Below are positions 6,001 through 45,822 of a stretch of 54,595 bases of DNA, piece by piece. The notes under the pieces were generated by a model that did no database searches, was not told where the DNA came from, and saw only the letters and a list, made by a program, of their open reading frames with translations. The stretch is from a virus. Taxonomy: Duplodnaviria > Caudoviricetes. The number at the start of each line of letters is the position of its first letter. The first letter of the stretch is position 1. Location of the stretch: IMG/VR virus record IMGVR_UViG_3300027872_000007, positions 1 to 54,595 of that record. One strand, 5' to 3'. The position numbers were made by a program, and so were the translations under genes.

Positions 6001-6674
6001 CCTTTCTTGGCCTGGCTCCTCGCATCCCTTATGGCTACCGGGTTGGGAACCTGCTTGCCATTGATGATCGTTGGGATATTGAAAAACCGGCCTTCATTCT
6101 CAACCGTGATGCTGATCTCGGTGGACTGGGAGCCGTCCTCGTTCTGAAGAAGCTGCCTGGTCGGATCAATAACAAAACCGTGCGGATCTTTGGGATATTT
6201 AATCCACTGCTCACGCTCTTTCTTCAGCCTACCTTCGGCTGATGGCCTGGCCTTGCCAGCGTCACCTGGGCGCAGATAATCGGTCAGTGCATTTTCGGCC
6301 TCAGTGTCCGGTGGCTCCTCCAGCCCGGCCCTTATTAGCGCCGAGTGCGGCGCCGGCTTTGATCCGCCAAAGCTAGTTGTACCGCTGCCGCGACCGGGGA
6401 AAGTCTCGCGATTAAGTTTGATGTTGTTTTTTGTGATCTGCCTGGCTTCTTCGCGTGTTGGCGCGTTCCGCCTGGCTTCCGTTTTGATGTCATCACGCCA
6501 CTCCTGAAATGAATCGAACGCACGACCGAAGAACCCTGGCTCGCTTGAGTCGCCAATATCAATGCGACTGACCGGAGACTCAGGATCTGGAGCTTCTTCG
6601 ACGAGAGACAGCGGAGCTGGAGCCTCTACCTCCTCCTCGTCGTCTTCTTCGGTTACGATTGAAAGCCCTGCCAT
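1..6674 (-). CDS. Giant polyvalent internal-virion/ejection protein (>=2224 aa, 3' end outside window) with ART-like, InPase and HExxxH metallopeptidase domains
   Basis: ATG at 6674 (MAGLSIVTEEDDEEE), 2 nt after the upstream stop. The frame was open wherever I translated it, down to base 3; it is absent from the ORF track, consistent with no stop in the window. Motifs: VVWRGEHG..KGFDGAIH..EYRVFNADQ; PTEEQKKAGNYKKGH..ITIENAKG..YGYIKGT..DEHKVMIG; LLHEVVGHFGLR; YIDEMQSDWHQ. Confidence 0.85.
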   Translation of the reverse strand, partial: MAGLSIVTEEDDEEEVEAPAPLSLVEEAPDPESPVSRIDIGDSSEPGFFGRAFDSFQEWRDDIKTEARRNAPTREEARQITKNNIKLNRETFPGRGSGTTSFGGSKPAPHSALIRAGLEEPPDTEAENALTDYLRPGDAGKARPSAEGRLKKEREQWIKYPKDPHGFVIDPTRQLLQNEDGSQSTEISITVENEGRFFNIPTIINGKQVPNPVAIRDARSQAKKGWIHPNFATQEEAIEAAQARSDHIMEARRLWKEREPDEPEEAKEEKPEDPWGMVLWDTLTNVPAMFKRQYGGAKMFLNAPRDLAYILEHASDQGVAPEDSFALEVEAYVQGKEPAELYGEMLKEAGADAELQEGLRISKEARDYLQTYTPNVQEDSVKYYASAIIEGSINMAPMLIVAAATRSANAGAAIMGGQVFADQYAESIAEGRSHSQAVNDGMVFGAAEVLTERIPIGILTKGGGTLLKRFLKAGGAEALQEPLTQLIQDAYTKGFITEEMTFGEALIWITTTEEGLAMLRRSAIIGFGVGGSLATVVHPFYKDVTQEEIDKDDPTTDDSGKKIRKPKPKPPSEQAGEISDAEAEELGLVKVDLDVDLLERVAAGDPLTIDEQYTLTNAGYGRFVGADERIMLLPKGRKALSSLRDTAAGEEIIMEGEEVTIRKTGEAIDIVEPKRMVRAEEREEGDVTDKGGEKIVVWRGEHGLREGQDTEFQTRIGSLSFGSLATATVYAKEPNDRTRDRIARDPRVRGYTLNIKKPIVNSKNDPFIDISEVRRKLGQAAVRHILNDIELSNRIMNTNNWEENFAQEFESPAEVLRKAPERVDQLYMEVSTLLDDATMVQKMRDKGFDGAIHQGMGLNFDEIEYRVFNADQATRLPEIEIVMEEDEISETETFRSDADESRSSIAARLDAAQRRVESEPTEEQKKAGNYKKGHMTIDGLPITIENAKGGTRSGTDSQGNKWSIKMKDAYGYIKGTESNERDGYGGFDQVDAFIGRYPESGNVVVINQKKDARKKISPENFDEHKVMIGYRSTEDALKGYRRNYSDGGRLLGDYVEMTTEEFKGWLDRADTKLMATAEQLIPKQAALFIEKPRTNAGKGYSVPDLQGALRPVYRMFRTVPPVRVIESIEDLPRHLQLSMEDDHSKKNTTGMYDQGAFNDDIYIIANNVTSRAEAIETLLHEVVGHFGLRQVLPPWRFDEFMDTVSKSFAKEVREVTQQYDLDWNDISERRIAAEEFIAHTAQRVLAGQTVKQRAQQLLDRIIEALRDVVRWMTGQDAMFNTGQLMAVIAQSSDFVQKPGGYQRAKRRGRLRHVSAPYFYSAVWKAFNETDTKSTSADGWKQFIRSQIKKGKMKQTEIDWMGLETWLEDATWADLYSMTANTGWPIGDRMEDVESLFPGPIFEVFKEQREVGAEITSVLKRANTLQLEAFDTAFPDTSKKIGAPEYNHTANAFRSQWQADNEDTQFLPVTEQRDLNNMQEQRSELTAKLKAFGGTKPKKIPVTSIQSYIERNGVDIDVKNPGGDDEYGKPDFDEQHPDSEEEVDEDAWYEHWETIRDQHWEDYYSSALKEVYQEHNWDPDLEADPDIPEEEDMDIEELNVALGVWDGTSVDDMEEQANEQATESLEEDHYVDERSDWETKNRDATWYSGQYSIRVDNDGDFSVQHEEEGDIGYDSDFDNAVIVATDHYENKAFAWKDYMLKPAGEDYEVLLFRWQNPDQEIFSESGHWENEDNFVAHVRFDVRKDPDGNDAFYIDEMQSDWHQSIRDAVKEKLLEAWADHSYSPDYDNRDGTFGGGEDYDGTPLAEMYEEARSQALENPEQVKKWKEKAESQWKAITAHRKATTKEMKSWPVTKDMSVQIKATMVGSTGVAIGKAKDLLSRFEAFVDSKEGGAITTEEVRQEQFRPAIFEKHGFVAGLNHIQNIIFSAYRELMPKHSEKLLAGTITREEFNGMVLDRAEELGVSERRLSLATKEGSNWAGVLDDIWSGKISSDYSQARLVLKNLSKVEKDAIELPLWDGTVEGKMEGEVVDQARKDLHAEAMTRKLNDMPSSVIEWQHVQDKTHIKDAWDEVVDNLSRDSDVWSSARAVDLYSAFTSLARHMSLVSMNSMKLDLETEDAETNLGYEPFDYNLNERHVASMEMGLLSFHESKNKYQQYADGHSFAPFEKDWQLLVIKHMIAEASRRGMSRIYFSKGEVHGIRWSGAEAVDSVNFKKHHLPAPEADP

Positions 6675-6676
6675 GG

Positions 6677-8005
6677 CTAATTCGCTTGCTCAACCTTGCC
6701 GTTTCGGATACGAACCTTGGTCTTATTCGATAACGTGTAGATCTTTCCTGGGACCATGCCGGCGCGAGCCTGGGAATCCATACCACTAAGCAGTCCATCA
6801 GGATCCTCGAAACCACCAGCCTTCTTGCTGCCGGTCTCGATGCTGCCGCTATTGATGATCTCCATGCGCCGCTCGACGAATCCTTGAGCTACTTCGAGCT
6901 GCTCATCAGGAGTCATCAGCTTCCAGCGTTTCAACTGTCCGGTGCTGGGAATACGATACCTTGAGCTGGCCTTATCTGGGTCCTCCAGGTTCTTCATCAC
7001 CCGATCAGTCTGATCGGCTCGCTCTAGTTCTGGGAACGCGACGTTTGCGCCGCCGCCTTTTGCGTATGCGAGCGCACGTCGCTTGCATGACTTCAGCGCA
7101 GAACCCTTGAGCCCCTCGCACTCCAGGCCCTCGTAAGCCATGCGATCAACTTCACTGGCAAACTTATCGGCATTCGCGGCCTGCACTGGTTCACCATCCA
7201 TCAGGACCGGCTTCGACTCACCACTTTGCTGATCGACGACGATAAAGTTGCCATCTCTGTCCGCCTTGACAACCGTATCCGCTTCCTCGGCTTTCTTGAT
7301 CTGGGCTTCCGTAAGGCGCCGTTTTTGTTCACGTTCTTCGGCTTCAGTTGCTGCCTTGGCTTTGGCTGTCTCACGCCGTTGATGGCCACCGAACGCCTGC
7401 ATGCCGGCTTGTCCAATGTCGCCAGCAATGGTGCCCTCTCCAGAGCCGGATGAGGCCATTAGGCTCAGCCCAAACTCCATTAAAATCAGTGCCTTCTCTT
7501 GCCTGGTCAGCTTGCCTTTCAGGTCCTTGGATTTCTTTTTCATCGTCGGATCGTTTTCGGATTTCTCCGGCTCGGTGCCCGTTATCTTGGCGTACTCCTC
7601 GTCAATGTTTGTGCCAGCCTTCTCCATTGAATCGATAGCAGAATTGACGGATTTCGGATCGGCTTTCTCTGCCATGCCGGCGAAGCTGTTCTCGCCCTTA
7701 TCGAACTCCGCGGTCCGATCTGGCTGTGCCTGGGCTTGTACAGGAGGCATCGCTGGCTGTGGCGCTTGACCTGGAGCATCGAAGCTCGGAGCTGGCGCTC
7801 CAGGCCCTGGTCCTACAGCCCCCTCTGGAGGCATCGATGCCATCGGCCCTGTTGGCGAGCCGCCTGCGCCGATAGGCTGCGCTTGCAACGGTGACTGCTC
7901 AGGAAGCGGAAAGGTTGTCGCGCCTTCCGGCTGTGGCTGGCCTCGAACAATGTCTTGCAACGCAGGAACATTCTGGGCCAGATATTCGTCGAGTAATTTA
8001 CCCAT
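6677..8005 (-). CDS. Putative internal virion (ejection) protein
   Basis: Likely start MGKLLDEYL at 8005, just after the upstream stop. P/Q-rich N-terminus and a G/A-rich LMEFGLSLMAS..IGQAG segment. Lies between ejection-type genes. Confidence 0.65.
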   Translation of the reverse strand: MGKLLDEYLAQNVPALQDIVRGQPQPEGATTFPLPEQSPLQAQPIGAGGSPTGPMASMPPEGAVGPGPGAPAPSFDAPGQAPQPAMPPVQAQAQPDRTAEFDKGENSFAGMAEKADPKSVNSAIDSMEKAGTNIDEEYAKITGTEPEKSENDPTMKKKSKDLKGKLTRQEKALILMEFGLSLMASSGSGEGTIAGDIGQAGMQAFGGHQRRETAKAKAATEAEEREQKRRLTEAQIKKAEEADTVVKADRDGNFIVVDQQSGESKPVLMDGEPVQAANADKFASEVDRMAYEGLECEGLKGSALKSCKRRALAYAKGGGANVAFPELERADQTDRVMKNLEDPDKASSRYRIPSTGQLKRWKLMTPDEQLEVAQGFVERRMEIINSGSIETGSKKAGGFEDPDGLLSGMDSQARAGMVPGKIYTLSNKTKVRIRNGKVEQAN

Positions 8006-8009
8006 AATT

Positions 8010-8909
8010 TTATTCCGTAGGGCCGTATAGACCGGCGCCCTGACCAGGTGGGCCGCCTTCTGCCGCACCTTGAGCCACCAATGACATGCCACCAGTGAAA
8101 TAAGCTGCCGTGACCGTTGCCGCTGCACCAAGGATCGCCTGGAACTCACCGCCTTCAGTGGATGTGGTCATGGTCTCGCCGTGTGGCACGGTACTGAGTG
8201 CAGCCAGGAGCGGCTGTAGATTGGTGATGTCCCAATCCCTGGCTTCAATGAACTGCTGATAATCGAAGTCGAGACCGGCCTGATCGAGAGATCGCTTCAG
8301 GCCACCTGTCACCAAGAGATTGTTCATCTCGGTTGAGAGCATTCGCTGACCTTCGGACCCAAGGTTACGGAACTGGTCCGAAGAAGCGCGAGCTGCTACA
8401 CGGTCCTGCTCGAATCGGTTCGCCGCAGACTCGAACGCCATGGCATAGCCACGCGCATATAGATCGGAGATCGCTTCCAGGCTCTTACCGCTGGCCTCGG
8501 ATGCGATGATTGCCGCCCTGGATCCACCGAAAGCGGAAGCCATGCCAGCTTCTTGCTGTGCCGTCTGTTTACGACGCAGACCTTCCTCGCGAAGCTCACG
8601 AGCTGCCGGCTCCAGTGCGCCCTTGATAAATGGATTCTGGTATGCCTCGATGTCAGCATCGAGGAAAGACTGACTGCCACGTTCGGCCAGCTCACGCGAA
8701 CGATCCAAGTCTGCCCGATAGGCTCCACCTTCCGTCGCGGCAAGATCATAGGCTCGCTGCTCGTTCGGATCGAACGAGGCAACACGCTGATCGGTAAATG
8801 GCGTATAGGGGCGCTGCGCGATGTCTCGCGCCATTCCAACCGCTTGCTGGCTACCCTGGCTCAGCCACGCTGGAATGTCCCTCTGTTGAACCTTCTTTTT
8901 CTTGGACAT
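8010..8909 (-). CDS. Internal virion / DNA-transfer (pilot-like) protein
   Basis: YQNPF, AFGGSR and QAGLDFDYQQF motifs plus a hydrophobic G/A-rich C-terminus, typical of podovirus ejection proteins. Confidence 0.7.
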   Translation of the reverse strand: MSKKKKVQQRDIPAWLSQGSQQAVGMARDIAQRPYTPFTDQRVASFDPNEQRAYDLAATEGGAYRADLDRSRELAERGSQSFLDADIEAYQNPFIKGALEPAARELREEGLRRKQTAQQEAGMASAFGGSRAAIIASEASGKSLEAISDLYARGYAMAFESAANRFEQDRVAARASSDQFRNLGSEGQRMLSTEMNNLLVTGGLKRSLDQAGLDFDYQQFIEARDWDITNLQPLLAALSTVPHGETMTTSTEGGEFQAILGAAATVTAAYFTGGMSLVAQGAAEGGPPGQGAGLYGPTE

Positions 8910-9399
8910 CGTTAGGTGCCCTCACAAAGTTGCCGCCACCATATTGGTAGCCCCTTCGCTCCATCAACTTGTCTTTCAAGTCGGTGTCGCGACCAGTCAT
9001 CAATCCGATAATGATTGGCAACCCTTTCCCTGTTGCCGGATCCACTTTCTCATCCGCAAACATCTCGACCATCTTCATCAGTTGGTCGGCAACATCCGTG
9101 TCTCTCCAGGTCTTTAGGACATAAGTCCAGTCGTTCTGCATTACCCAGTCGTCACTCCAATCGTCCCTGGCAATAGACATTCCAATGGCCGCGACGATCT
9201 GTTTTTGCTCCTTCGTTTCAGCTATGGCGACAAAGCCCCTATCGATCAGAGTTAAAACATGGAACATCTGCTTCGACTCGTTAATGCTGAGTGTCGAATA
9301 CCAGATGTCTTCCGCTTGCTCCTTTGCCGCTCTCCTCAGTAACTGAACGAGCTTTACTACATCGTCGGGCTGTGCCCTCCGAATGCTTACCTTCTTCAC
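8851..9399 (-). CDS. GNAT-family acetyltransferase-like protein
   Basis: IRRAQPDDV N-terminus, YVLKTWR..VADQLM, LMERRGY. Sits before the ejection genes, as in many podoviruses. Confidence 0.7.
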   Translation of the reverse strand: MKKVSIRRAQPDDVVKLVQLLRRAAKEQAEDIWYSTLSINESKQMFHVLTLIDRGFVAIAETKEQKQIVAAIGMSIARDDWSDDWVMQNDWTYVLKTWRDTDVADQLMKMVEMFADEKVDPATGKGLPIIIGLMTGRDTDLKDKLMERRGYQYGGGNFVRAPNDVQEKEGSTEGHSSVAEPG

Positions 9400-9423
9400 G
9401 ATGATCTCCTTTATCCGACTCCG

Positions 9424-10221
9424 CTATTTGCCAGGGCCACCTCGCAAGGCAAGCCACCGGCCAAAATTCAACAGTTTCAATCCTACATACTCGCCAAACG
9501 AGTTGGCTGCACTATGGTCCGCCAATGCCGCACCCCACACCGCTCCACCAATGGCGGCTGAGGATACACCAGTTATAGATGGAGCCACTGACGCTGCATA
9601 AGATACGGACGTAAACGCACTTGGCGCAATCGGAGATGCCGCGAAGCCAAACACTCGAATGGAATCGCCTGCTTGAAATAAATTGTCCAACCCGCCAGTC
9701 AGCCCATCGGTAGTGATCTGGATCCCGGAATCAAGCGAAGCCAACGTGGCCACTGAGCCGTCTGTCAGATTCTCCACCTGAAACTTGTCTAGCAGCTTGT
9801 CCTCAATGCCAAAGGTAATAAAACTCGCAGCAGAATCGATCAGGATGGTATTGGAATCAGCCCCAGTGTGGCTTCCGAAGTCCTCCAAGAAGGCAACCAA
9901 GTCACCCTCACCAACAACCATTAACTCAGTCGCCGGCCCTCCGCGAGCAGCGAATCTCAACTTGGCATTCTGGATTGTGGCAATGACCCCTGCCTGAAGA
10001 CCTGGCTGCACAGGGGTCTTGCCCTCGGTGTCGAGGATCTTGTCGTCATCCAGATTTTCCAGTGAATCATCAGCTTCCCCGGCTGGCAGGGTATTCGATC
10101 TCAGCGTGTCAACAAGATCCTGAACCGCCAGGGCTGCTGACGGTGGACTAACCTCGATAATTCGTGGACTGATTCGGCTGAATACCCCCCAATCAACAGT
10201 AATGTCTGCCCTTTCGGTCAT
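9424..10221 (-). CDS. Virion structural protein (tail-associated)
   Basis: 265 aa, overlaps the upstream stop (ATGA), lies in the tail module. Confidence 0.6.
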   Translation of the reverse strand: MTERADITVDWGVFSRISPRIIEVSPPSAALAVQDLVDTLRSNTLPAGEADDSLENLDDDKILDTEGKTPVQPGLQAGVIATIQNAKLRFAARGGPATELMVVGEGDLVAFLEDFGSHTGADSNTILIDSAASFITFGIEDKLLDKFQVENLTDGSVATLASLDSGIQITTDGLTGGLDNLFQAGDSIRVFGFAASPIAPSAFTSVSYAASVAPSITGVSSAAIGGAVWGAALADHSAANSFGEYVGLKLLNFGRWLALRGGPGK

Positions 10222-27188: not shown

Positions 27189-28100
27189 CTACGCGCCACC
27201 TGGCGAGCCGTAAGCACCGCGCCAGTCGGACCAGCCGAAGCTGTACCGCTCGCGAGCCTTGTAGCGAAGATTGCCGGTCTCGAAGTCGCCCTCGATACCA
27301 CGCGAGATCTTCTTACGAAGCATGTGCTTGAGCCCATCAGGACAGTCCGTCTTGAGAGTCCACTGGTCGGGATCCGTCAGGCGGTGATTCACGCAGAATC
27401 CGTCGCCCACGGTGCCGAGAGTGTAGATGGCGCTGATGTCGTTATCGCCAGTGTTCGTGCGATACGGTGACATCAAGATCCGCGTTGCCACGAATTGCAA
27501 CTCCGTTGGGAGAATTAGCTTCGTGATCTGCGCTGCGATCGGAATGCCACGGTCGTCATCGAACTCTGAGATGTCGATCGCTGCCTGTTCCAGTGATGCC
27601 TCTGCAAGGTCGGCTGCTGTCGCCAGGGTATTCGCCTGGACACCGCCGCCGAACTGCGGATGGCTTGCTGAGAACAACGGTACACCGTCGCCGCCAAGAA
27701 AGAGGGCGTCGAAGCCGTTGTTGACAATATCAGCACCCTTAACTTCTTTGGTGTGCTGATGTGAACGTGCAAGGGCACGAGCATACTTGTTACCCAATGA
27801 CCCATAGAGTCCGTCTTCCTCGGCTTCCTCAGTGATAGCGAACGCCAGAGCGATCGTCTCATGAGTGTACCGAGCAACGTAACTCTCCGCGCCCTGGTCG
27901 TATGCAACGCCTTCACCTTCGGGCTTGACTGGTGCACCTGCGAACCCGGCGAGCAACACGTCTTCCTCGAATGCTTTCATCGATCGCTCGATGTCGAAGA
28001 TTTCGCGCCACTCCTCTGGATACCGCTTGTACTCCATGCCGAAGACGGCGTTTAAGCCTTCTTGCAGTTGCTTGCGAAAGTCGCTTCGATTCATTGCCAT
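27189..28100 (-). CDS. Major capsid protein (HK97 fold, Mu gpT-like family)
   Basis: MAMNRSDFRKQLQEGLNAVFG, KPEGEGVAYD, ARYTHETIALAFAITEEA.ED, GGDGVPLFSASHP, GDFETGNLRYKARERYSFGWSDWRGAYGS. Confidence 0.92.
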   Translation of the reverse strand: MAMNRSDFRKQLQEGLNAVFGMEYKRYPEEWREIFDIERSMKAFEEDVLLAGFAGAPVKPEGEGVAYDQGAESYVARYTHETIALAFAITEEAEEDGLYGSLGNKYARALARSHQHTKEVKGADIVNNGFDALFLGGDGVPLFSASHPQFGGGVQANTLATAADLAEASLEQAAIDISEFDDDRGIPIAAQITKLILPTELQFVATRILMSPYRTNTGDNDISAIYTLGTVGDGFCVNHRLTDPDQWTLKTDCPDGLKHMLRKKISRGIEGDFETGNLRYKARERYSFGWSDWRGAYGSPGGA

Positions 28101-28711: not shown

Positions 28712-29338
28712 TCAATCATCGTCGGCTACCTGTACTTGTCGCACAGGAGCCACCGTAACGGATGAGTGTCTGGTCGCCTGGATCGGGCCGAAGCCTGATA
28801 CATCCTCCCTGGACACTCCCTTGAGTTGCCGCTCGATTGCCCGGTTTTGACGCCTCTGCTTGTCGCGGTAAAACTTCTTCCGCTGAGCATGAACGCGCTT
28901 GGGCATCTCGCATAGGATCAAGTCCTCTACGCCGATGACATCCCCGTACTGGTCGATATTGATGGTCGGCAGTGAACGATCTGACAGGGCTGACGCCTTG
29001 ACAGGTCTCCATCCTTCTCGAATTGCATTTCGCAGTCGGGCTGTATCCTTCACCGTTCCAAGACGTATCCGAATGAAACGATTTACATATCCATCCCTGG
29101 CTGGCGGGGCATCAAGATCTGAATACCGGCGCCATTCCGTAACTTCATTGTCGGCTTCCGTGTCGTACAGGTCGTCCACTTCGCGGTCCTGGTTCTCCTG
29201 CTGAACCTTTCCATCTGCATGGACCACTTGCTCTGGCGTGTTCTTTTTACCGCCAGTTTTACTCTTTCCCTGAGCTGAATCGCTGCGCCGCTTCTCCGCT
29301 GCGGACCTCGCTTGTTTCTTCGCCGTTTTACTCATCAT
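28712..29338 (-). CDS. Conserved head-module protein
   Basis: LDAPPARDGY..RFIR..REGWRPV..VEDLILCEMP; lies between scaffold and decoration genes. Confidence 0.7.
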   Translation of the reverse strand: MMSKTAKKQARSAAEKRRSDSAQGKSKTGGKKNTPEQVVHADGKVQQENQDREVDDLYDTEADNEVTEWRRYSDLDAPPARDGYVNRFIRIRLGTVKDTARLRNAIREGWRPVKASALSDRSLPTINIDQYGDVIGVEDLILCEMPKRVHAQRKKFYRDKQRRQNRAIERQLKGVSREDVSGFGPIQATRHSSVTVAPVRQVQVADDD

Positions 29339-30386
29339 CACAACCCTCCAGGTAGTTTTCCACCGCCTTTGGGTCATCCGGATCCAGGCCGAACGCTTTC
29401 ATGTTCGCAACCCTGGCGCGGCTCAATGTTTTTCCCTTTTTCTTCCTAAACTTCTTCTTCGTCCTGGAAACGCCACCACGGTCGCCTTCCGATACCGGGC
29501 TCCTGCGCCTCTGCTTCTTCGCCTTCGCTTTGCGGCGAGACTTCGAGGGAACCTCCCCGAACTCATCCTCCTCCTCGAACTCCTCCTCCTCGTCTTCCTC
29601 ACCGAGGCCCAGATCTACCGTGTGTTCCACGATGCCTGGATACTTTTTCTCCACCAGGGCTTCGAGATGCTCGTAAAAGTCATCGTCGGTGGGCTTGTAA
29701 CCCTTCTTCTGCAAAGCGAGATCCGCTTTACGAACGAAGGCCCGGACGTGTCCGAGATCTTCGTCATCCCACCAATCCTGCTCCTGGATCCACTCCATAG
29801 CCCTGGGGATAATCGTGGGCGTATCTTCCTCGCCCAGATCATCTGGCTCATCATGCTCCGCTTCTAGCTCCCTCTTGCGGTCTCGAAGGTCCGCAGTCAA
29901 CTCACCCATTTGTCGAGTGAGCGAGGCGACTGTCTTGCTGTCGCCCTTCTCCATGGCAGCTTCGATCTGGGATTCCAGATCTTCAAGTTTGCCGCTGAAC
30001 TCATTGAGTTCGTCGGTCTTCCCTGTTTTTTCCAGAGTTGCGATCCGCTTTTCTAGCTTCGATATTGTCTCGCCGGCTTCAGCCTTGGCGGCAGCTAGTT
30101 GTCGATTCGCATCTCGTTTCACACCAGCCAGGCGCTTACGCATGGCTTTGGTCATCTTGGCTGGATCGTACTCTCCATCTTCAGCCAGTTCGTCGTCCGC
30201 TTCGCTGTCCGTGTCATCCGTATCCGCTTCGCCATCCGTGGTTTGTTCGTCTTCATGACGCTCGTTCTCAGTCAAATCCTCCTCGTCGAGTCCGAGCTGA
30301 TCAAGTACGTTGTCCGGTATCGGATCTGTGTTCCGTCGCAGATCATCAAACTCATACTCGATCTTTTCCCGTTGTCCATTGGCCAT
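29328..30386 (-). CDS. Capsid scaffolding protein
   Basis: Acidic coiled-coil, AMEWIQEQDWW, GYKPTDDDFY, basic C-terminus; canonical position. Confidence 0.75.
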   Translation of the reverse strand: MANGQREKIEYEFDDLRRNTDPIPDNVLDQLGLDEEDLTENERHEDEQTTDGEADTDDTDSEADDELAEDGEYDPAKMTKAMRKRLAGVKRDANRQLAAAKAEAGETISKLEKRIATLEKTGKTDELNEFSGKLEDLESQIEAAMEKGDSKTVASLTRQMGELTADLRDRKRELEAEHDEPDDLGEEDTPTIIPRAMEWIQEQDWWDDEDLGHVRAFVRKADLALQKKGYKPTDDDFYEHLEALVEKKYPGIVEHTVDLGLGEEDEEEEFEEEDEFGEVPSKSRRKAKAKKQRRRSPVSEGDRGGVSRTKKKFRKKKGKTLSRARVANMKAFGLDPDDPKAVENYLEGCDDE

Positions 30387-30415: not shown

Positions 30416-30443
30416 ATAATACTCCTTGCAACCCTCCAGTCAA
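30416..30443 (-). promoter_or_regulatory. Candidate sigma70 promoter for the scaffold-capsid operon
   Basis: TTGACT-16nt-TATTAT upstream of the scaffold RBS. Confidence 0.45.
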
Positions 30444-30859
30444 AGAGACATGCAATCGAACGCTTCGGGCGTTTCCGTCACACAAAGAAGTTGCGTATCG
30501 GAAATGACCACCCAAAGGGTGCCATCCTGCGTCCGAAACTTCTCGCCGTCATGCTTTCCAAACTGCACCCAATCGCCAACGACGCATCCGTGCGCCTGCA
30601 TCAACTTCAATTGCGATCGGGTAACCGCTTGAAAACACAACGGTCCCATGTCCCTAACCATGCCAACGTAAGTACTGAACTCCCTTTGCTCCAGATACTC
30701 ATCCGGCATCTCGATACCACCAGCAGACATCTTTGGTGGCTCCGGGATCTGCACCGCGATGCGCCACAAATCGATCTTCCCTGGGTAGTTCTTTTGTACA
30801 AACGTGTCCAGCAGTGTTGCTGGCGCCTGCGCATCTTGCGCCTCAGCTTCGCTATTCAC
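30440..30859 (-). CDS. groES: GroES-like co-chaperonin
   Basis: WRIAV..KMSAGGIEMPD..VGMVRDMGP..VGDWVQFGKHDG..ISDTQLL. Likely GTG start at 30859. Confidence 0.8.
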   Translation of the reverse strand: MNSEAEAQDAQAPATLLDTFVQKNYPGKIDLWRIAVQIPEPPKMSAGGIEMPDEYLEQREFSTYVGMVRDMGPLCFQAVTRSQLKLMQAHGCVVGDWVQFGKHDGEKFRTQDGTLWVVISDTQLLCVTETPEAFDCMSL

Positions 30860-31052
30860 CTGTTTCCTCCTCTCCTTCAACCTGCTCAAGAAACTCGCGA
30901 GTAATCTCCATGATCCAGCGAAGTTCGGCGTTCCTGCCGACCAACTTCATGTACTGATCATGCGGCACACCTTTGTCCATGTTGGCGTGATTCTCCGCGA
31001 GACGTTCCTTGGCTCGATTGAGGACGAGTTCTGCAATCCTAAGTGCAGACAT
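30852..31052 (-). CDS. Small helical protein upstream of GroES
   Basis: G..HDQYMKLVG..AEL pattern in a conserved position. Confidence 0.65.
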   Translation of the reverse strand: MSALRIAELVLNRAKERLAENHANMDKGVPHDQYMKLVGRNAELRWIMEITREFLEQVEGEEETGE

Positions 31053-31668: not shown

Positions 31669-31804
31669 GTTTCTTCCTCGCTTTCCGACGCTTCTCACGA
31701 CGATCCTTCTCCACGGCTTCGATCTCATGCGCCGTTTTGCGGATCTGCTTGCGCACCTTCTCTGCCGGCGATGGCTTCGGTGCGTCAGTCTTTTTGTCAG
31801 CCAT
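31649..31804 (-). CDS. Small basic protein (51 aa, not in ORF track)
   Basis: MADKKTDAPKPSPAEKVRKQIRK...; ATG overlaps the portal stop. Confidence 0.5.
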   Translation of the reverse strand: MADKKTDAPKPSPAEKVRKQIRKTAHEIEAVEKDRREKRRKARKKLGTGES

Positions 31805-34290
31805 TACTTTTTCCTCTTGCGCTGTTTGCTGGTGCTGCTTTTCGGTGCGCTCACTGGCCCCTTTCCGAACGTGGCTTGAGCATGAGCTTTCTTGTCCAGG
31901 CGGCGAACTTCGGCTCTCGATTCTTTGTCCTTGCGTTTTTGCTCGGCATCGGACTCCTTGTCGAGCCGCTTCTTCCCGGCATCGGATTCTTCGTCTTTCC
32001 GATCGATGCCAGCTTCTGTCTCAGCTCTACCACGCTCGATCTTGCCAATGGTCTCCAGGTCAGCCTCGTCTTCGAGGCGCTGTTGCTCGTCCTGCTCGGC
32101 CTGTTCTTCAGGCGTCTTCGCAGGCGGTGGCGGTGGTCGCAGCTTCTTGGCCACGGCCTGACTGATCAATTGCTCAAGCTCAGGTGGAAGGTCCTCGTTT
32201 TCACTTGGATCGTCCAGGTTAATGTATGGGAGTTGCGTACCCAGCTCGGCCTCGACTTGCTGCCGATACAGATACGCTTTGTGTTCCATGACGTGCGCCT
32301 GAATCACCGGCTCCAGGTTCGCTACCAGGTCCGGGTTCTCCGCGGCCTGGGTCTCTGCAAAATTCATGTGCACAGCGACGTGCGCTTGATGATCCTGAAG
32401 GGGATACACGGTCGCCGCGGCGCCGGTCATGAAGCCCATGTTCTCGCTCACTGGATCCAGCGGTGCATCGCTCTCCTCCGGCATGATCTGATCGACATCC
32501 GGAATACGAAGGGCTTCGAGCATGCGTCGATGCGCAATCTTTTTCTGCTTCTTCGGATACAGCTCTGGAGCCGCGGTGATCAGTTCCAGGATTGCCTGGT
32601 TCTGCGCGATGCGCTGCGTTGATGACCAGATGTTCGGATCCGATACCGGGATGATGTCCACGCGGCCATCGAAATCCTGTTTCAGGATCTTGCGCTCCTC
32701 GCCCTGGACCTCGTAGGGATACTCGTCCACGTCCATGAACTCGTAGTTCAGCGTGGCCATCATCTTGAACTCTTGCCGCGCCGAGACGTGCATGCGCTTG
32801 TGGATGCCGCTGAACACCTTCGAGCCCTGTTCTATGAGCGCCAGAGTCGTGCCAACGGGCCCGGTGTTCGAGGCATCACCGATCATGTTCTCAGTGGTGG
32901 TGGCAAAGCGCCGGCCTTCCTTGACCAACGTCTCAACAAGGGTAGCGAGAGCTGTCGATGGCTCTTTCACCGGCAGGTTGAAGAACGCCTTCTCCAACTC
33001 GTCGGCAGACATATCGACATCGATCCACTCGCCCGGAGTGAAACGTATCTCCCCGGCAACCTTGGCTTCCTTGGATTTGAATCCACCCTGTAGGTTTGCC
33101 ACCGAGGCACTATCAAGCAGGGCACGAATGCCACCACTGACTGCCTTCGCAAGTGAGCCAATTATGTGTAGAAGCCCAAAACCGTAAAAGCCAAGGCCGG
33201 GGAGATACTTGTAGTGGGTGAACCAGATGCGCTTCTTCATCAGCTCGTCGTCGTGCTTCCAGTTGCGACGAACTGCCAGGACCTCGCGAGACTCAGCCTC
33301 GACCGTGACGATGTACGGTGGCGCTATGTCGGAGTTTTCGTCCCATGGCATGTGGTAATCGATGTGGTATTCGAGGATCGTGTAGATCGTGTCATCGTAA
33401 TGTTGCTGCGGCGAACGATCGTCGGCCACGTCCTCCATGTCGTACCGGGAAAAGCTGGTGTTCTTATCGACGATGATCTGCGGTGTCGGCACTAACCGTG
33501 CATCCTCGATGAATGATCCCGCCTCCTGGGCCCGATAAACATCATTCTCCGGCATTTCGTACTTGTGACAATACCGCGGCGCGTTCGCAAGAGTTCGCGC
33601 ATGGTAGGGAACAATAAAGTCCTCTGCGGTCACAAAGCGTGATGTCGTCATGCCGGTGATCGGGTCGATGTAGACTTTCTTGAAAGCCGAACCTGATAAG
33701 GGAAGGTAGAAAAGCATCTGGTCCGTTGACCAGTAATACTCCTCATCGGCTTCCGTGAGCTGGTAGTTCATGTAGTCAGCGAGTCGCTCACCCTGCTCTA
33801 CCTTCTCGTCGGTCGCCTCGCCCATGATGTAAGGCTTTACCGGGCCCGAAGGCGGGAAGAACTCCTCAATCGCTCGCGCCTGGAACTGCGTGGTGGCTTC
33901 AGCGATGAGTGGATGCTGGACCGTGGCCGCACCCTTGAACGGTACATCGGATGCTGGCTCGTCCGTCAGGCCCATAAGCCTGAGTCCATCAGCCAGCCGG
34001 TTGAAGTGTTCTTCGCGAACCTGCTCATCGATCTCGTAGTACTCGATCAGCTCATCCGCGATGGCCATGCGTTCTTGAGCAGACAGTTCCTCGGCTAGAT
34101 TGTCGTTCCAACCGTCAGGCGATGCTTCGTCATGATCGATGTCCGCGTATTCAGCGATCTCACCTTTCGGAATCACTGAAATGGTTCCGTCATCGTTGTG
34201 GCGAATGACGTTCTTTTCAGTGTACTGCTCGGCCTCCTTGAAGGTCGGCATCGTCTTCATTGTCGAAAGCAGATCTGCTCTAGCTGCCAT
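31804..34290 (-). CDS. Portal protein
   Basis: PFKGAATVQHPLIAEATTQFQARA, YMNYQL, LPLSGSAFKKVY, GLGFYGFGLLH, PVGTTLALIEQG, DFDGRVDIIPVSDPN. Confidence 0.9.
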   Translation of the reverse strand: MAARADLLSTMKTMPTFKEAEQYTEKNVIRHNDDGTISVIPKGEIAEYADIDHDEASPDGWNDNLAEELSAQERMAIADELIEYYEIDEQVREEHFNRLADGLRLMGLTDEPASDVPFKGAATVQHPLIAEATTQFQARAIEEFFPPSGPVKPYIMGEATDEKVEQGERLADYMNYQLTEADEEYYWSTDQMLFYLPLSGSAFKKVYIDPITGMTTSRFVTAEDFIVPYHARTLANAPRYCHKYEMPENDVYRAQEAGSFIEDARLVPTPQIIVDKNTSFSRYDMEDVADDRSPQQHYDDTIYTILEYHIDYHMPWDENSDIAPPYIVTVEAESREVLAVRRNWKHDDELMKKRIWFTHYKYLPGLGFYGFGLLHIIGSLAKAVSGGIRALLDSASVANLQGGFKSKEAKVAGEIRFTPGEWIDVDMSADELEKAFFNLPVKEPSTALATLVETLVKEGRRFATTTENMIGDASNTGPVGTTLALIEQGSKVFSGIHKRMHVSARQEFKMMATLNYEFMDVDEYPYEVQGEERKILKQDFDGRVDIIPVSDPNIWSSTQRIAQNQAILELITAAPELYPKKQKKIAHRRMLEALRIPDVDQIMPEESDAPLDPVSENMGFMTGAAATVYPLQDHQAHVAVHMNFAETQAAENPDLVANLEPVIQAHVMEHKAYLYRQQVEAELGTQLPYINLDDPSENEDLPPELEQLISQAVAKKLRPPPPPAKTPEEQAEQDEQQRLEDEADLETIGKIERGRAETEAGIDRKDEESDAGKKRLDKESDAEQKRKDKESRAEVRRLDKKAHAQATFGKGPVSAPKSSTSKQRKRKK

Positions 34291-34350
34291 ACAACCTCCC
34301 ACGACCGACGATCGTCGGTAATGGTCTTCGTGGGCGGCGAAGATATTCGG

Positions 34351-36107: not shown

Positions 36108-36371
36108 TCAGTCTGGGTCGCCGTGGAAGTCTGCGAAGTATCGTTTGTTGAGCCAGCTATTGAACCATCGCTGCATCCACAGGATGTCGCGCTTCTCCAT
36201 GTCCGACCAAGCACAGTCGAGAGTGTAACTGTCGTCTTTCGCATCCCGCTTATTGGTGAGGATAATCACGTCATCAATCTCGCCACGCTCTGCTTGTTGA
36301 AGCGCATGGCGCAGCGTTCGCACGGCGTCATACTCACCGACTGGCAATTCTTTCACGTTGTCATGCGCCAT
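36108..36371 (-). CDS. Hypothetical protein
   Basis: MAHDNVKELP..TLRHALQQAERGEIDDVIIL; overlaps the TerL end. Confidence 0.6.
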   Translation of the reverse strand: MAHDNVKELPVGEYDAVRTLRHALQQAERGEIDDVIILTNKRDAKDDSYTLDCAWSDMEKRDILWMQRWFNSWLNKRYFADFHGDPD

Positions 36372-37953
36372 AGAACTTCCTTGGCTGGCTGAACAGCGCC
36401 AGCTCATCGTCCTTCTCATCGTCAGGTAAGTCGATCAAGCCCATGCGCCGGATATACGCGAGCAGCATCACCACGCAGTCCACCAGGTCGTCATTCTCAC
36501 CGACCGGGAACGTCGCGCACTGATTGATAACTTCGTAGGCCCAGTTCCTGGGGATGTACCACAGCCGGCCATCCTTCAAGATCTGCGCGACCATGTGAGC
36601 CCGGAACACTTTGTCCTTGGACCCAGGCTTCACTCCGCGTATCGAGAGCCCTGCTTTACGCAGCTCCTGAATCAACGAATGACCGCTGGCCTTCTTCTCG
36701 ATCAGCGTCCAGTCAGGATGCCACTCGACATTGTGTCCGATCGCTTCGGTCTTGAGATCTGGGAACTCCACTTTGTCGTTGAACCGCTCCAGCATCAGAG
36801 CATGAACAGCCATGTCCTGTTCTCGACCGCTCTCCGAATACTCGAACAGACCAGCAGTGATCCTCGCGGAGCAGTCGTTCTCCTCGTCGGTCTCGAAAGC
36901 CGTGTCGTACACGGAGATGACCTCAGTGAACTCCGGCATTGGCATTGGCTTGCCGGCGTACTGATGGTCCTGCGGATAGCACCACTGCTTCCACCACTTC
37001 TTCTTCAAGATCAGGCCACCACCGGACGTTGGATCTTGGTTCATCTGGGCAGAGTAGTCCCTGACTGACATGGCCTTGCGCTCAGCCTTGACCTCCTCCT
37101 GGCCAAAGCGTTGCTCGTTCAGCAATTCGCCCTTCTTCTCCCTTGGGTCCTCGAATATCGCACCTTCCTTGGTCTTATGTCCCTTGCCGGCATTGAAGAA
37201 CGTGATGCAGTGCCTGGCTGGATCGTATTCCATCGGCAGCATCAGCACTTCCCATCGCTCGTCCTCGGTCATGAGGATGTGGCCGAACAGGTCAGCATCG
37301 TGCGACCGCTGCCCGATCAGGACCTTCTGCCCAGTCGTCGGATCATTGAGTCGCGATCGCAGTGAGTTGTCCCAGGCTGACAGTGTGCTGTAACGAATCA
37401 GGTCGGAGTACACGTCCGACATATTGTGCGGGTCATCGATGATGATCTTATCGCCGCCTTCGCCAGTGACCTTGCCCAGGATCGAGCCTGAGATGCGATG
37501 ACCACCGTGATTGTTGACGTAGCGATTCTTGCGATTGTCCGATGGATCCAGGTAGAACGTGTCCGCGTACCGTTCTCGAAACCAGGCCGACTCGATCAGC
37601 CGGCGAGACTTGACTGCATCTCGGATGGCCAGCTCCTGAGCGTAAGAGGCGAACAGGAACTGCACTCCTGGATCCAGTAGCCACTCCCACACCGGCCACA
37701 ACACACTCGCGGTCAGACTCTTGGTCTGCCGCGGTGGGATATTGATCATCAAATTGCGAATGTCACCGAACGTGACATAGGCGAGGTGGTCACAGATAGC
37801 GTCCAGGTGCCAGTTGTTCTTGAACTGCTTCGGCTCTACGACCGGCCAGGCAACGGCAACGAACTCTCTCAGATCTCTCCGATAGAACTCGGCTTGGGCT
37901 TGCGTGAGTTGCTTGGATACCGCTTCTTGAACGCTGAGTGCATCCGCGACCAC
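36361..37953 (-). CDS. terL: Terminase large subunit
   Basis: Walker A INIPPRQTKS, Walker B IIIDDP, nuclease residues YDTA, IEKKASG and NDDLVD. Confidence 0.95.
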   Translation of the reverse strand: MVADALSVQEAVSKQLTQAQAEFYRRDLREFVAVAWPVVEPKQFKNNWHLDAICDHLAYVTFGDIRNLMINIPPRQTKSLTASVLWPVWEWLLDPGVQFLFASYAQELAIRDAVKSRRLIESAWFRERYADTFYLDPSDNRKNRYVNNHGGHRISGSILGKVTGEGGDKIIIDDPHNMSDVYSDLIRYSTLSAWDNSLRSRLNDPTTGQKVLIGQRSHDADLFGHILMTEDERWEVLMLPMEYDPARHCITFFNAGKGHKTKEGAIFEDPREKKGELLNEQRFGQEEVKAERKAMSVRDYSAQMNQDPTSGGGLILKKKWWKQWCYPQDHQYAGKPMPMPEFTEVISVYDTAFETDEENDCSARITAGLFEYSESGREQDMAVHALMLERFNDKVEFPDLKTEAIGHNVEWHPDWTLIEKKASGHSLIQELRKAGLSIRGVKPGSKDKVFRAHMVAQILKDGRLWYIPRNWAYEVINQCATFPVGENDDLVDCVVMLLAYIRRMGLIDLPDDEKDDELALFSQPRKFYGA

Positions 37954-43386: not shown

Positions 43387-43571
43387 GGCATCTTCCGATA
43401 GCAGTATCTGGCAATCTGATTGATGATGTTGTCACGACCGAGAAGTGTTGCTGGCCGATTCTTTGGCTTCGTTAGCTCGTAGATGTCATCGATGATCTTC
43501 CTGGTGGCTTTCAGCTCGACACGAAGCTCACCCTCGGACATCTTGTCCACGTTTTTAGTGAAAGTGATCAC
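43383..43571 (-). CDS. Hypothetical protein
   Basis: AAGGAGG SD and a GTGA overlap. Confidence 0.6.
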   Translation of the reverse strand: MITFTKNVDKMSEGELRVELKATRKIIDDIYELTKPKNRPATLLGRDNIINQIARYCYRKMP

Positions 43572-43846
43572 GGCGCCTCCTTGAGAATATCGAGATCCAT
43601 AACGTGAGTCAGCATCTCAATGTCTTCCTTGCGGCAATAGATGACCTGATTGCCCTTGTCAAGGTACAGCTTGCCCGGATCCAATATGCCAACAGTACGC
43701 CAAGCCCTCAAATGCAGGCGTCTTAGAAAATCGTACCATTTGGGTGTGATTCTTACTTTGGGCTTCACCGGCACCAATCTGTAACCGGCGAACATATTCT
43801 TCGTCATCGTCTCTGTCCCTTTAGCTCCAGTCCTATTCTCAATCAT
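43568..43846 (-). CDS. Hypothetical protein
   Basis: Coupled ORF; start could be 43807. Confidence 0.5.
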   Translation of the reverse strand: MIENRTGAKGTETMTKNMFAGYRLVPVKPKVRITPKWYDFLRRLHLRAWRTVGILDPGKLYLDKGNQVIYCRKEDIEMLTHVMDLDILKEAP

Positions 43847-44153
43847 CGATGTCGATCCACAACTCCTCCATATTGTCTGGCTCCAGCTCCTCGTACACGT
43901 CACCGAAGGCTTTGTTCAGGCCCTCCTTCAACGCCTTTGGGAACTCAGCCCTAAGCCCTGGATCATACGGAATGCTCGCACCCTCCGGCTTGGCCTGTAC
44001 CAGGCTGAAGCCTCCGGTCAGGTCATGGTGCGCGGCATCGTGTAGCAGAGTTGGATGCTTCATGCTTCTCAGCATCACGCCATCGTCGTTTTTCGGAACC
44101 ACCGCCATCGCAGCAGCGCCAATGAAAGCCTGAATGAATCCGCGTCTGTTCAT
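43839..44153 (-). CDS. Twin-arginine-signal protein made of permuted MCP fragments
   Basis: MNRRGFIQ; DGVMLRSMKHP; GGFSLVQAKPEGASIPYD; RAEFPKALKEGLNKAFGDVY. Confidence 0.75.
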   Translation of the reverse strand: MNRRGFIQAFIGAAAMAVVPKNDDGVMLRSMKHPTLLHDAAHHDLTGGFSLVQAKPEGASIPYDPGLRAEFPKALKEGLNKAFGDVYEELEPDNMEELWIDIDD

Positions 44154-44356
44154 GCCGGCGTTCCATACATGGCTCGGTAATCGATCCACTGAACGTCCAG
44201 GCTGGAATCCATGTTGACCTTAAACTTCATCGCAACGATGTTGGGATCAGCCAATGGACTGAGATCCAGCCTTGGCATCGCAGTCGCCATTCGCATGCCG
44301 ATCGCTACCGTTGCTACTGCGCCGACAAACGCCTTGAGAAATGCTCGTCTTTTCAT
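44150..44356 (-). CDS. Twin-arginine-signal peptide ending in an MCP C-terminus mimic
   Basis: MKRRAFLK..MKFKV..WIDYRAMYGTPA. Confidence 0.7.
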   Translation of the reverse strand: MKRRAFLKAFVGAVATVAIGMRMATAMPRLDLSPLADPNIVAMKFKVNMDSSLDVQWIDYRAMYGTPA

Positions 44357-44577
44357 AGACTCAAAAGCCAAAAACCAAATGCAGCAATGGGAGCCATAAT
44401 GAGAAGCGTTCCAACAAACTGGGCGCCCCAATCTGTTTCCATTGGAGGTGAAGCATATCGAGGCTCATGAACAACTGTGTCTCCATACACGCTACGCCAA
44501 TCACTCCAATGACTGACGAAGAAGACGGCGTTTAAGCCTTCTTGCAACTGTTTGCGCGAGAAGTTCTCTTTGCTCAT
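44353..44577 (-). CDS. Membrane-anchored fusion of the MCP N- and C-terminal peptides
   Basis: RKQLQEGLNAVF + WSDWRSVYG + C-terminal TM helix. Confidence 0.8.
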   Translation of the reverse strand: MSKENFSRKQLQEGLNAVFFVSHWSDWRSVYGDTVVHEPRYASPPMETDWGAQFVGTLLIMAPIAAFGFWLLSL

Positions 44578-44738
44578 TGCTTTCTTCTCATATCACCGCG
44601 GCCCAATGCCTCCGAGTTCTTCATCTGGAGTCTGTGGCTTTCCCGTTTCGCTTCATTGAACGTGCCGTGGAATTTCGATTCGCCGGTCTCCAGCTCCTCA
44701 ATGAGACGACCACGGCGCTCCCACTTCTGTTCAAGCAT
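44574..44738 (-). CDS. Small charged protein (54 aa, not in ORF track)
   Basis: MLEQKWERRGRLIEELETG...; AAGGAG upstream and an ATGA overlap downstream. Confidence 0.5.
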   Translation of the reverse strand: MLEQKWERRGRLIEELETGESKFHGTFNEAKRESHRLQMKNSEALGRGDMRRKQ

Positions 44739-45231
44739 GCTGGAACATGGCTCCTTTCGACATATAAATCACTGGCATAGCAATCGTATCGTCCATCTCC
44801 TGCATGCCCATTAAAGCACCATGCTCCATTTTATTGATCGACAAAGCCCCCTGACTAATGCTGATGATCTGCGCTGCTTCCAGCTCATCGAAGAACTCAT
44901 CGTTCATGCCGAACTCCTCGATTACTTGATGAGCGACATATCGAGCCCCACGCTCAACATTTCTGAATGCCTGCGTAGCTTTCCGAAGAAGGTCTTTGGG
45001 ATTGATAGGCGTCCATGGATCTGAGTCGAAAATGGCAGCTCTCTCGAAGATCTGAACGTTCCAGGGCTCAGCAGTATCGATGCCATAGTAGTATTTATCG
45101 GTAGCCATCTCGTAACGCCAGGTGCCATCAGCAAGCACCTCCGGAAACTTTGGAGCCATACGAGAGGCAATAGCAACCGTCGCCACGGCTGCCGCCAATC
45201 CATGAAAGAACGCTCTCCTGGTAAGTCGCAC
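44731..45231 (-). CDS. Twin-arginine-signal protein with MCP-like fragments
   Basis: GTG start with SD; LTRRAFFH; GTWRYEMATDKYYYG; ARYVAHQVIEEFGMNDE. Confidence 0.65.
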   Translation of the reverse strand: MRLTRRAFFHGLAAAVATVAIASRMAPKFPEVLADGTWRYEMATDKYYYGIDTAEPWNVQIFERAAIFDSDPWTPINPKDLLRKATQAFRNVERGARYVAHQVIEEFGMNDEFFDELEAAQIISISQGALSINKMEHGALMGMQEMDDTIAMPVIYMSKGAMFQHA

Positions 45232-45235
45232 TGTC

Positions 45236-45586
45236 CTACTCCTCTTTTTCCTCCACTTTAACGCCCTCGGCTCTTTGGATTGCCTTCTCAACGTCCGCAG
45301 GGCGCTCTTGCAGAATCTGAGCTGGCGTTCCACCTCCGGGCTGCCGAACCGTTTCGTAATCCGGTTTCGGTTTAGGCGCTTCGGTCTTTCGATCGCGACG
45401 ACGCTTGGCGGTTTCTTCCTGGCCGCGCTCTCGGTGTTCCTCGATGAGCTTTTTACGCTCAGCGTCTGATGCTTTGGTTTCCAGTTTTCGCTTGCGCGCC
45501 TTCTCGCGATCAGTATCTGGTGCCGGCGTACTCATTGGTGGGCCGAATGATCGTGGTCGTTCCTCTTTGTTCGCTCTACTGGCCAT
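45236..45586 (-). CDS. Charged low-complexity protein
   Basis: Operon-contiguous ORF. Confidence 0.6.
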   Translation of the reverse strand: MASRANKEERPRSFGPPMSTPAPDTDREKARKRKLETKASDAERKKLIEEHRERGQEETAKRRRDRKTEAPKPKPDYETVRQPGGGTPAQILQERPADVEKAIQRAEGVKVEEKEE

Positions 45587-45588
45587 TG

Positions 45589-45822
45589 CTAAATCCCCGC
45601 TTTTCGTTCCTGCTCGTCAAGATACTTCTGACGTTCAGTTACCGGCTTGGGTGCTTTGGTCTTCCGATCTTCCGGCTTCGTCGCTTCAGGCGCTTCTGGC
45701 TTTTCGTCGCCGTACTGTTCCTTGTACCGCTTGCGCCTGGCCTCACGCTTCTTGGCCACTTTACACGAGATAGAATCCGGATCTTCGCGACAAATCTCTT
45801 TTGCTGATCGGCTGGTCGGCAT
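45589..45822 (-). CDS. Charged small protein
   Basis: Operon-contiguous ORF. Confidence 0.55.
   Translation of the reverse strand: MPTSRSAKEICREDPDSISCKVAKKREARRKRYKEQYGDEKPEAPEATKPEDRKTKAPKPVTERQKYLDEQERKAGI

Follow-up and report, generated by a model that had tools for sequence, protein, structure and literature searches.

The sequence analysed here (the window) is the whole of a 54.6-kb linear virus record with an estimated completeness of 78%, and its source is a marine tailed phage. The minus strand holds nearly all genes from approximately 47.6 kb down to base 1, among them those for TerL (36361-37953), the portal (31804-34302), an SU10-like adaptor, and tail-fibre proteins. The major capsid protein (MCP) gene (27189..28100, minus strand) encodes a Mu gpT-like protein of 303 aa with the HK97 fold, with family matches to phrog_371 (E 3.5e-17) and PF10124 Mu-like gpT (E 3.5e-6). 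An AF2 model of this protein has a pLDDT of 56, with the N-arm, E-loop, and P-domain unreliable, and Foldseek searches with this low-confidence model returned HK97-fold capsids and encapsulins. A sequence search of the PDB with the MCP returned Mu GpT entries only, at E 0.6. The nearest named phages by MCP, at 55-57% identity, are Roseobacter phages CRP-901 and CRP-902, phage 023Pt_psg01, and Pelagibacter phage HTVC023P.

Several other features of this gene string were recorded in passing. An alignment of PDB entries 8rkx and 8rkc with the MCP profile placed MCP residues 267-295 ahead of residues 164-220 in the chain; at E ~0.6 this alignment is unreliable, and it hints at best that segment order may differ between the Mu GpT group and this MCP group. 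A giant minus-strand ORF at 3-6674 runs off the end of the window after at least 2224 aa, carries an InPase domain (PF18823, E 4.4e-40, residues 922-1066), and possibly encodes a giant virion or ejected protein. A 149-aa protein encoded at 30440-30889 (minus strand), between the portal gene and a scaffold-like gene at 29328-30386, matches GroES-like co-chaperonins (phrog_3188, E 1.3e-6; Pfam Cpn10 below cut-off).

The gene of interest, hereafter the mini-gene (44353..44577, minus strand), encodes 74 aa comprising an MCP N-arm peptide, an MCP C-strand peptide, a linker, and a predicted C-terminal transmembrane (TM) helix. It is flanked on the same strand by four small ORFs. The stop codon of a 54-aa ORF (44574..44738; 63% identical to an ORF in the related locus L089) overlaps the mini-gene start codon in an ATGA, the start codon of ORF B (44150..44356, 68 aa) overlaps the mini-gene stop codon in the same way, and the start codon of ORF A (43839..44153, 104 aa) overlaps the stop codon of ORF B, likewise in an ATGA; all four reading frames are linked in one chain. 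ORF C (44731..45231, 166 aa) is conserved in loci L084 and L089. ORFs A, B, and C all have N-termini resembling twin-arginine (Tat) signals, with an RR motif 2-4 codons past a start and a hydrophobic stretch after it; a six-frame scan of the window found open-frame RR.F[LIFV] motifs in these three ORFs only, flanking the mini-gene.

Two of these neighbours also contain MCP-like segments. In ORF A, which belongs to the type designated T1 below and has homologues in nine IMG/VR loci, the signal-like region is followed by segments resembling MCP 136-148, the E-loop (MCP 49-71), and the N-arm (MCP 5-27). The last 14 residues of ORF B weakly resemble the MCP C-terminus, residues 287-300 (hhalign E 0.0038, prob 8.8%). 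The ORF C family gave no significant match to the MCP (hhalign E 0.084), and a search of IMG/VR with ORF C patterns returned nothing. Downstream of ORF A, a 111-aa ORF (43568-43903, minus strand) has a very weak E-loop-like stretch, MFAGYRLVPVKPK aligned with MCP LLAGFAGAPVKPE, which is not significant (BLASTP E 73). The surrounding region is highly fluid; a conserved protein of 184-204 aa lies among the mosaic genes of relatives (L084 2669-3259, L085 5809-6423, L089 4428-4982), has an N-terminal hydrophobic stretch that by eye resembles a signal peptide, and is absent from the window.

The original prediction described the mini-gene as a mini-capsid in which MCP terminal peptides are joined and membrane anchored, and its description of the sequence was accurate. 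Codons 8-19 of the mini-gene, RKQLQEGLNAVF, are identical at 12 of 12 residues to MCP codons 9-20 in the N-arm, and the underlying DNA (44521..44556 against 28041..28076, both minus strand) is a shared tract of 36 nt with 33 identities. Within it, 44521-44546 equals 28041-28066 exactly over 26 nt, and the three adjacent differences are all synonymous (AAA/AAG, CAG/CAA, TTG/CTG). Identity falls to chance in the flanks (7/21, 7/30, and 8/30), and the tract contains the sole exact match to the MCP gene of at least 17 nt across the remaining 53.5 kb of the window, where no other match exceeds 14 nt. Four residues (FVSH) after the 12-mer, codons 24-32 (44482..44508, minus strand) encode WSDWRSVYG, which matches WSDWRGAYG of the MCP C-terminal strand (codons 290-298; 27207..27233, minus strand) at 7 of 9 residues; all five degenerate codons for identical residues differ (AGT/TCC, GAT/GAC, CGT/CGC, TAT/TAC, GGA/GGC), for 16/27 nt in total. 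A 7/9 match to the C-strand arose in one of 3000 shuffles of mini-gene residues 20-74. MCP residues 21-289 have no counterpart in the mini-gene, and the added TM helix (residues 51-74; 44356..44427, minus strand) is predicted from hydrophobicity, with Kyte-Doolittle means of 1.62-2.11 in 19-residue windows. No Pfam or PHROG family matched the mini-gene product, which is therefore not a full HK97-fold MCP; the complete fold requires about 280-310 aa, and the only segments that align are those of 12 and 9 aa. It also lacks an RR motif, so that the Tat substrate pattern of RR.F[LI]K followed by an h-region is absent.

Relatives of this architecture occur in other phages. On a syntenic contig, L085:4983-5186 encodes a product of about 68-83 aa with a strand resembling MCP 277-300, a linker, and a C-terminal TM helix, and it matches the mini-gene product over 49 aa including the TM helix (BLASTP E 2e-5). 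Four more members (P0152-P0155, 65-83 aa) have the same strand, linker, and C-terminal TM helix, and two of these (P0154 and P0155) begin with an N-arm-like peptide, and thus share the order N-arm, C-strand, TM helix with the mini-gene. A five-sequence alignment (A5) has invariant residues W24, D26, R28, Y31, D49, F54, G56, I60, M61, P63, and W70. The mini-gene is only 24-26% identical to the family; it retains the W.D.R..Y strand motif (W24, D26, R28, Y31) and a terminal hydrophobic helix with the conserved F.G...IM.P......W, but the first C-strand, RY.A.ERY.FG, which precedes W.D.R in the family, is replaced by the N-arm patch and FVSH. Judged by these alignments, the mini-gene is a divergent member of a tail-anchored MCP C-strand family. 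As a separate observation, inspection by eye of L011 (~2246-2938; G004 near 14120) showed an ORF of about 100 aa, read from M131 of the open frame, in which an N-arm motif abuts a C-strand motif and a Cys/His-rich stretch follows, with no TM helix; it would be a soluble analogue of the mini-gene architecture, though its HMM match is weak (full-sequence E 0.27 over 16,372 pieces, E 0.016 in one record).

The mini-gene is probably a real gene, a member of this family that carries a recent MCP-derived patch. The foremost competing explanation, which is unlikely on present evidence, is that it is a by-product without function, left when stray recombination with the MCP gene scrambled an old accessory gene that is still open by chance and in the process of being lost. 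Its exact protein is a singleton (one cluster member in 5.8e9 clusters), and the patch removed the first C-strand that all four relatives kept. Although the annotated frame has the best codon score of the six (0.005 against -0.23 to -0.60), this value is barely above zero and is the lowest in the operon, and the GC3 of 0.44 is the lowest of nine genes scored in the region, the others having 0.49-0.68. The fluidity of the region also fits such a by-product, and the syntenic loci L084 and L089 have other genes between ORFs C and A. Against it, the ATGA coupling is intact on both sides, the patch is in frame, the TM helix and W.D.R..Y invariants were kept, and the N-arm plus C-strand architecture recurs in P0154 and P0155 and, by eye and with a weak HMM match, in the L011 ORF. 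The original prediction that the mini-gene is not decaying debris is thus sustained, on evidence other than that first offered, namely the ATGA coupling, the codon score of its own frame, and the conserved tail-anchored family. Searches for relatives of the mini-gene in IMG/VR and GenBank phages found none, as did a search of JGI metagenome contigs with A5; the mini-gene alone matched one unrelated high-GC bacterial contig in the latter, through the TM helix only. Promoter and terminator scans gave counts no higher than in shuffled sequence.

A further alternative, which is improbable, is that the mini-gene is a collinear N-terminal fragment of an MCP, in which mini-gene residues 8-32 align with MCP 9-36 across a gap of three residues and SHWSDWRSVY continues the N-arm (RYPEEWREIF). 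Both hhalign and HMMER prefer this alignment when the mini-gene is taken alone (prob 93.8%, E 1.8e-7). In that register, however, only W and R are identical, compared with 7 of 9 residues for MCP 290-298, and DNA identity is at chance immediately past the 36-nt tract. Furthermore, when alignment A5 is compared with the MCP alignment A1, the motif falls on MCP 276-300 (hhalign prob 97.7%, E 2.5e-12).

The history of the tract bears on a third alternative, close to the original proposal, in which the mini-gene is a decoy mini-capsid held matched to its own MCP by selection; this has little probability. It draws on the 12/12 peptide, the exclusively synonymous DNA differences, and the conservation of the C-strand motif through different codons. 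When the 36 nt were compared with 67 distinct MCP genes from IMG/VR, however, the resident gene (33/36) matched less well than the alleles L003 (35/36) and L005 (34/36), with L001 at 32/36. These alleles are from conspecific strains with MCPs of 96-97% aa identity, and the state of the mini-gene at the three synonymous codons is found among them (L003, L005). What separates the tract from the resident MCP gene is therefore polymorphism within the MCP population, and its synonymous character is accounted for by constraint on the MCP itself, that is, by purifying selection acting there alone. The 12-mer is also found in 10 of the 67 distinct MCPs, some of them ~70% identical overall, so that peptide identity to the resident MCP is not specific. 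The synonymous-divergence signature, which had been read as selection for a match to the cognate MCP, does not survive this comparison. The account that best fits the tract is a recent copy or conversion of an MCP allele that left an in-frame patch, and not long-term selection on the mini-gene. The C-strand motif (at most 21/27 nt identical to any allele) is an old family feature common to relatives in other phages. A simple internal deletion of the resident MCP gene was also considered and rejected, given the age of the C-strand part, the lower GC3, and the relatives in other phages.

Co-evolution of small genes and MCPs, which had been suggested as a test of the matching proposal, was evaluated with 13 HMM-defined MCP-like segments in small ORFs from five genomes that include their own MCP. 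In none did the cognate MCP score above the best non-cognate MCP (for example, 12 against 12, 12, 12, 10, and 12). Identity was concentrated at MCP columns conserved at 90% or above (e.g., 9/9, 8/9, and 12/15) and was near zero at variable columns (0/3, 1/4, and 1/6), although retention of invariant residues is in part an ascertainment effect, as HMM detection rewards conserved columns. Exact MCP tracts of at least 17 nt were absent from four other genomes. ITEEAEED, the most invariant stretch of the MCP, is deleted in the type designated T2, so the mosaics are not merely the most conserved parts of the MCP.

Finally, an assembly artefact at the repeat is very improbable, as a 36-nt tract with unique flanks on both sides would need two chimeric switches, a 5.4-kb contig of the probable source sample covers 43810-45600 with zero differences, and a run from a second study contains identical 151-nt pieces at 44357-44507 (mini-gene codons 24-74) and 44144-44294, although these independent pieces end 14 nt from the tract, and only contigs of the probable source sample extend across it.

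The mini-gene and its neighbours belong to a wider set of small genes built from MCP segments. An MCP HMM was made from 82 MCP open frames (64 distinct sequences), and among 16,161 six-frame pieces it detected 25 small ORFs at E<0.01. An upstream RR motif is present in 22 of the 25; of the other three, two are truncated at contig ends and one is the tail-anchored protein of L085. The module order is E-loop, A-helix, N-arm in T1; strand plus spine helix plus a conserved tail in T2; and C-strands followed by N-arm in T3 (L011), and hybrids also occur. Homology to the MCP was recovered by hhalign for T2 (E 8e-12, MCP 67-131) and for T1 (E 1.6e-6, E-loop). Orthologue dN/dS values of 0.18-0.64 for T1 and 0.28-0.91 for T2 show that these neighbouring types are under purifying selection. 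In four of five uncultured relatives, the fragment genes lie kilobases from the MCP gene of the same genome, and as a specificity control, the complete genomes of five cultured relatives gave no extra match to the MCP profile at E<=1. A reading of these genes as silent cassettes for antigenic variation was rejected, as the pieces have no DNA-level identity to the MCP save for the one tract and lie in conserved ORFs under purifying selection.

A search of 1.84e9 representatives with the T2 profile returned 160 proteins at E<=1e-3, 40 of them at E<=1e-10. The short representatives (<=215 aa) among the 150 matches listed, together with the mini-gene and its four tail-anchored relatives, make a set of 145 proteins, in which 111 begin with RR.[FVIL] and the remainder are mostly collinear MCP gene fragments. 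Further mosaics among the representatives combine a signal with the C-strand and spine helix, or the spine helix with the C-terminus. In an AF2 model of a T2 protein (pLDDT 70), the only structured parts are a signal helix and a single long helix, the latter a homologue of the spine helix; the rest is coil, and as modelled an HK97 domain is beyond the reach of the mosaic proteins. No PHROG match was obtained for T1, T2, or the tail-anchored type, T1 and T2 have no match in GenBank phages, and no Pfam or PHROGs family matches the mosaic proteins apart from sub-threshold Tat-signal families. Among 185,579 bacterial genomes there was a single match, to query residues 19-78 (without the signal part), on a Flavobacteriales MAG contig, and the nearest entries in the ESM Atlas are short clusters automatically named 'Mu-like gpT domain-containing'. 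Full-text literature searches found no description of such proteins and no phage-encoded MCP-fragment decoy. On these searches the mosaic family is undescribed, and it is broader and stranger than the mini-capsid originally proposed.

The N-terminal consensus of the 111 representatives is M-[NK]-R-R-x-F-[LI]-[KR], with F in 97% at +3 and L or I in 93% at +4, after which come ~13 residues rich in Ala, Val, and Gly and then a Pro. Across 91 aligned sequences, R3 and R4 alone are invariant, and conservation at F6 and at five positions of the spine helix is 90% or higher. These motif statistics fit the twin-arginine consensus. Together with ORFs A, B, and C, the representatives resemble Tat signal peptides in the RR-x-F-[LI] start, the Ala/Val/Gly stretch, and Pro, but differ in their very short n-region and in their scores; seven of nine RR proteins match a Tat model (PF10518 or TIGR01409), all below cut-off (12.5-20 bits against cut-offs of 22.7 and 16.7), and two match neither. 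The mini-gene, lacking RR, stands apart. Most family members thus look Tat-exported and would be targeted to the envelope. In P0010-P0043 and others, the region just past RR aligns to MCP 120-151 (..KGA....PGGDGV.L.S..HP), and the Tat-like h-region may itself derive from MCP sequence, namely the G-loop and the terminal part of the spine helix.

On the preferred reading, the mini-ORF is a real phage accessory gene in a very young form. It belongs to a group of clade-specific, small, presumably envelope-targeted proteins assembled in shuffled orders from short segments of an HK97-fold MCP, the segments used being the N-arm, E-loop, strand, spine helix, G-loop, one A-domain helix, and C-terminal strands. 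The majority carry a Tat-like signal, and a minority that includes the mini-gene instead have a predicted C-terminal TM tail anchor. The mini-gene is a diverged member of the subfamily with N-arm, C-strand, and TM helix, its N-arm part having been overwritten recently, through gene conversion or illegitimate recombination, by 36 nt of an MCP allele from its own phage population. As linear mimics of capsid peptides at the cell envelope, the proteins would trap a partner whose usual docking site is those MCP elements, the preferred candidates being internal or ejection proteins that a superinfecting relative releases. They are taken as linear mimics because residues invariant in the MCP are kept in fragments unable to fold as a capsid, and an envelope role is favoured because most members look Tat-exported and cluster among the small accessory genes that head the long leftward gene string. 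In HK97-fold capsids generally, elements of the N-arm and P-domain face the shell interior.

Whether the proteins act in general as mimics that bind a partner of the MCP is, on sequence evidence, an evenly balanced question, and each specific role is less probable than that. Superinfection exclusion or sensing through the ejected internal proteins of kin is a speculative possibility, control of assembly through the MCP or scaffold is rather unlikely, and a decoy for a host capsid sensor is doubtful. Any single mechanism must also explain a topology that differs by subfamily, with some apparently Tat-exported and others tail-anchored, and this weighs against the model. Complex prediction for A1 with A5 residues 1-48 gave a score of 0.00, which is no verdict and is evidence neither way.

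Comparison with known systems offers partial parallels. Full-length capsid paralogues and HK97-fold MCPs (Mu gpT-like, PF10124) share segment homology with the family, which differs in having segments of 9-60 residues only, often permuted. Short linear peptides that dock on HK97-fold shells are known from T4 capsid-targeting sequences and encapsulin cargo-loading peptides, and the Foldseek list for the MCP model included an EncA-targeting-peptide entry; those peptides, however, are not derived from the shell protein and lack membrane or export signals. Host sensors also read short regions of MCPs, as with the Gol peptide and Lit, or CapRel, which makes an MCP-peptide decoy conceivable, but most members of the present family appear to be exported. 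SieA of phage P22 is an envelope superinfection-exclusion protein proposed to act on ejection proteins (PMC10883804). SieA is like the present family in being phage-encoded, fast-diverging, and located in the envelope (a location that is predicted here), and unlike it in being a prophage-expressed, polytopic inner-membrane protein without capsid similarity (PMC10883804).

If these proteins are capsid-peptide mimics, they would represent a new phage strategy in which short pieces of virion building blocks are sent to the envelope as an accessory function, and a sizeable block of marine viral 'dark matter' would become a testable family. It is tentatively suggested that lytic marine phages carry a large class (at least 111 clusters at 50% identity) of Tat-exported or tail-anchored capsid mimics, refreshed by occasional gene conversion from the resident MCP and acting at the envelope as traps or sensors for proteins that dock on the capsid shell or as decoys for capsid-sensing immunity. 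Were the trap, sensor, or decoy reading true, it would add to phage-phage or phage-host conflict a mode for which no precedent has been described. The mini-gene also offers a rare snapshot of gene making, in which a 36-nt in-frame patch passed from a structural gene to an accessory gene within one phage population. A more general lesson is that, between a constrained gene and its copy, differences that are synonymous only are not evidence of selection on the copy.

Two minor observations concern T2, a type with no gene in the window. In L085, a T2 gene (7787-8116) with a Tat-like signal and a spine-helix segment immediately precedes TerL (8119-9723), a position in which one might look for a small terminase. 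The C-termini of T2 proteins (L085, L086, L087, L088, and L090; P0002-P0008) end in a conserved tail, EGARRSVG.(E/G)GSPDR(I/V), and, as speculation, its acidic-x-hydrophobic C-terminus could be a PDZ-type ligand.
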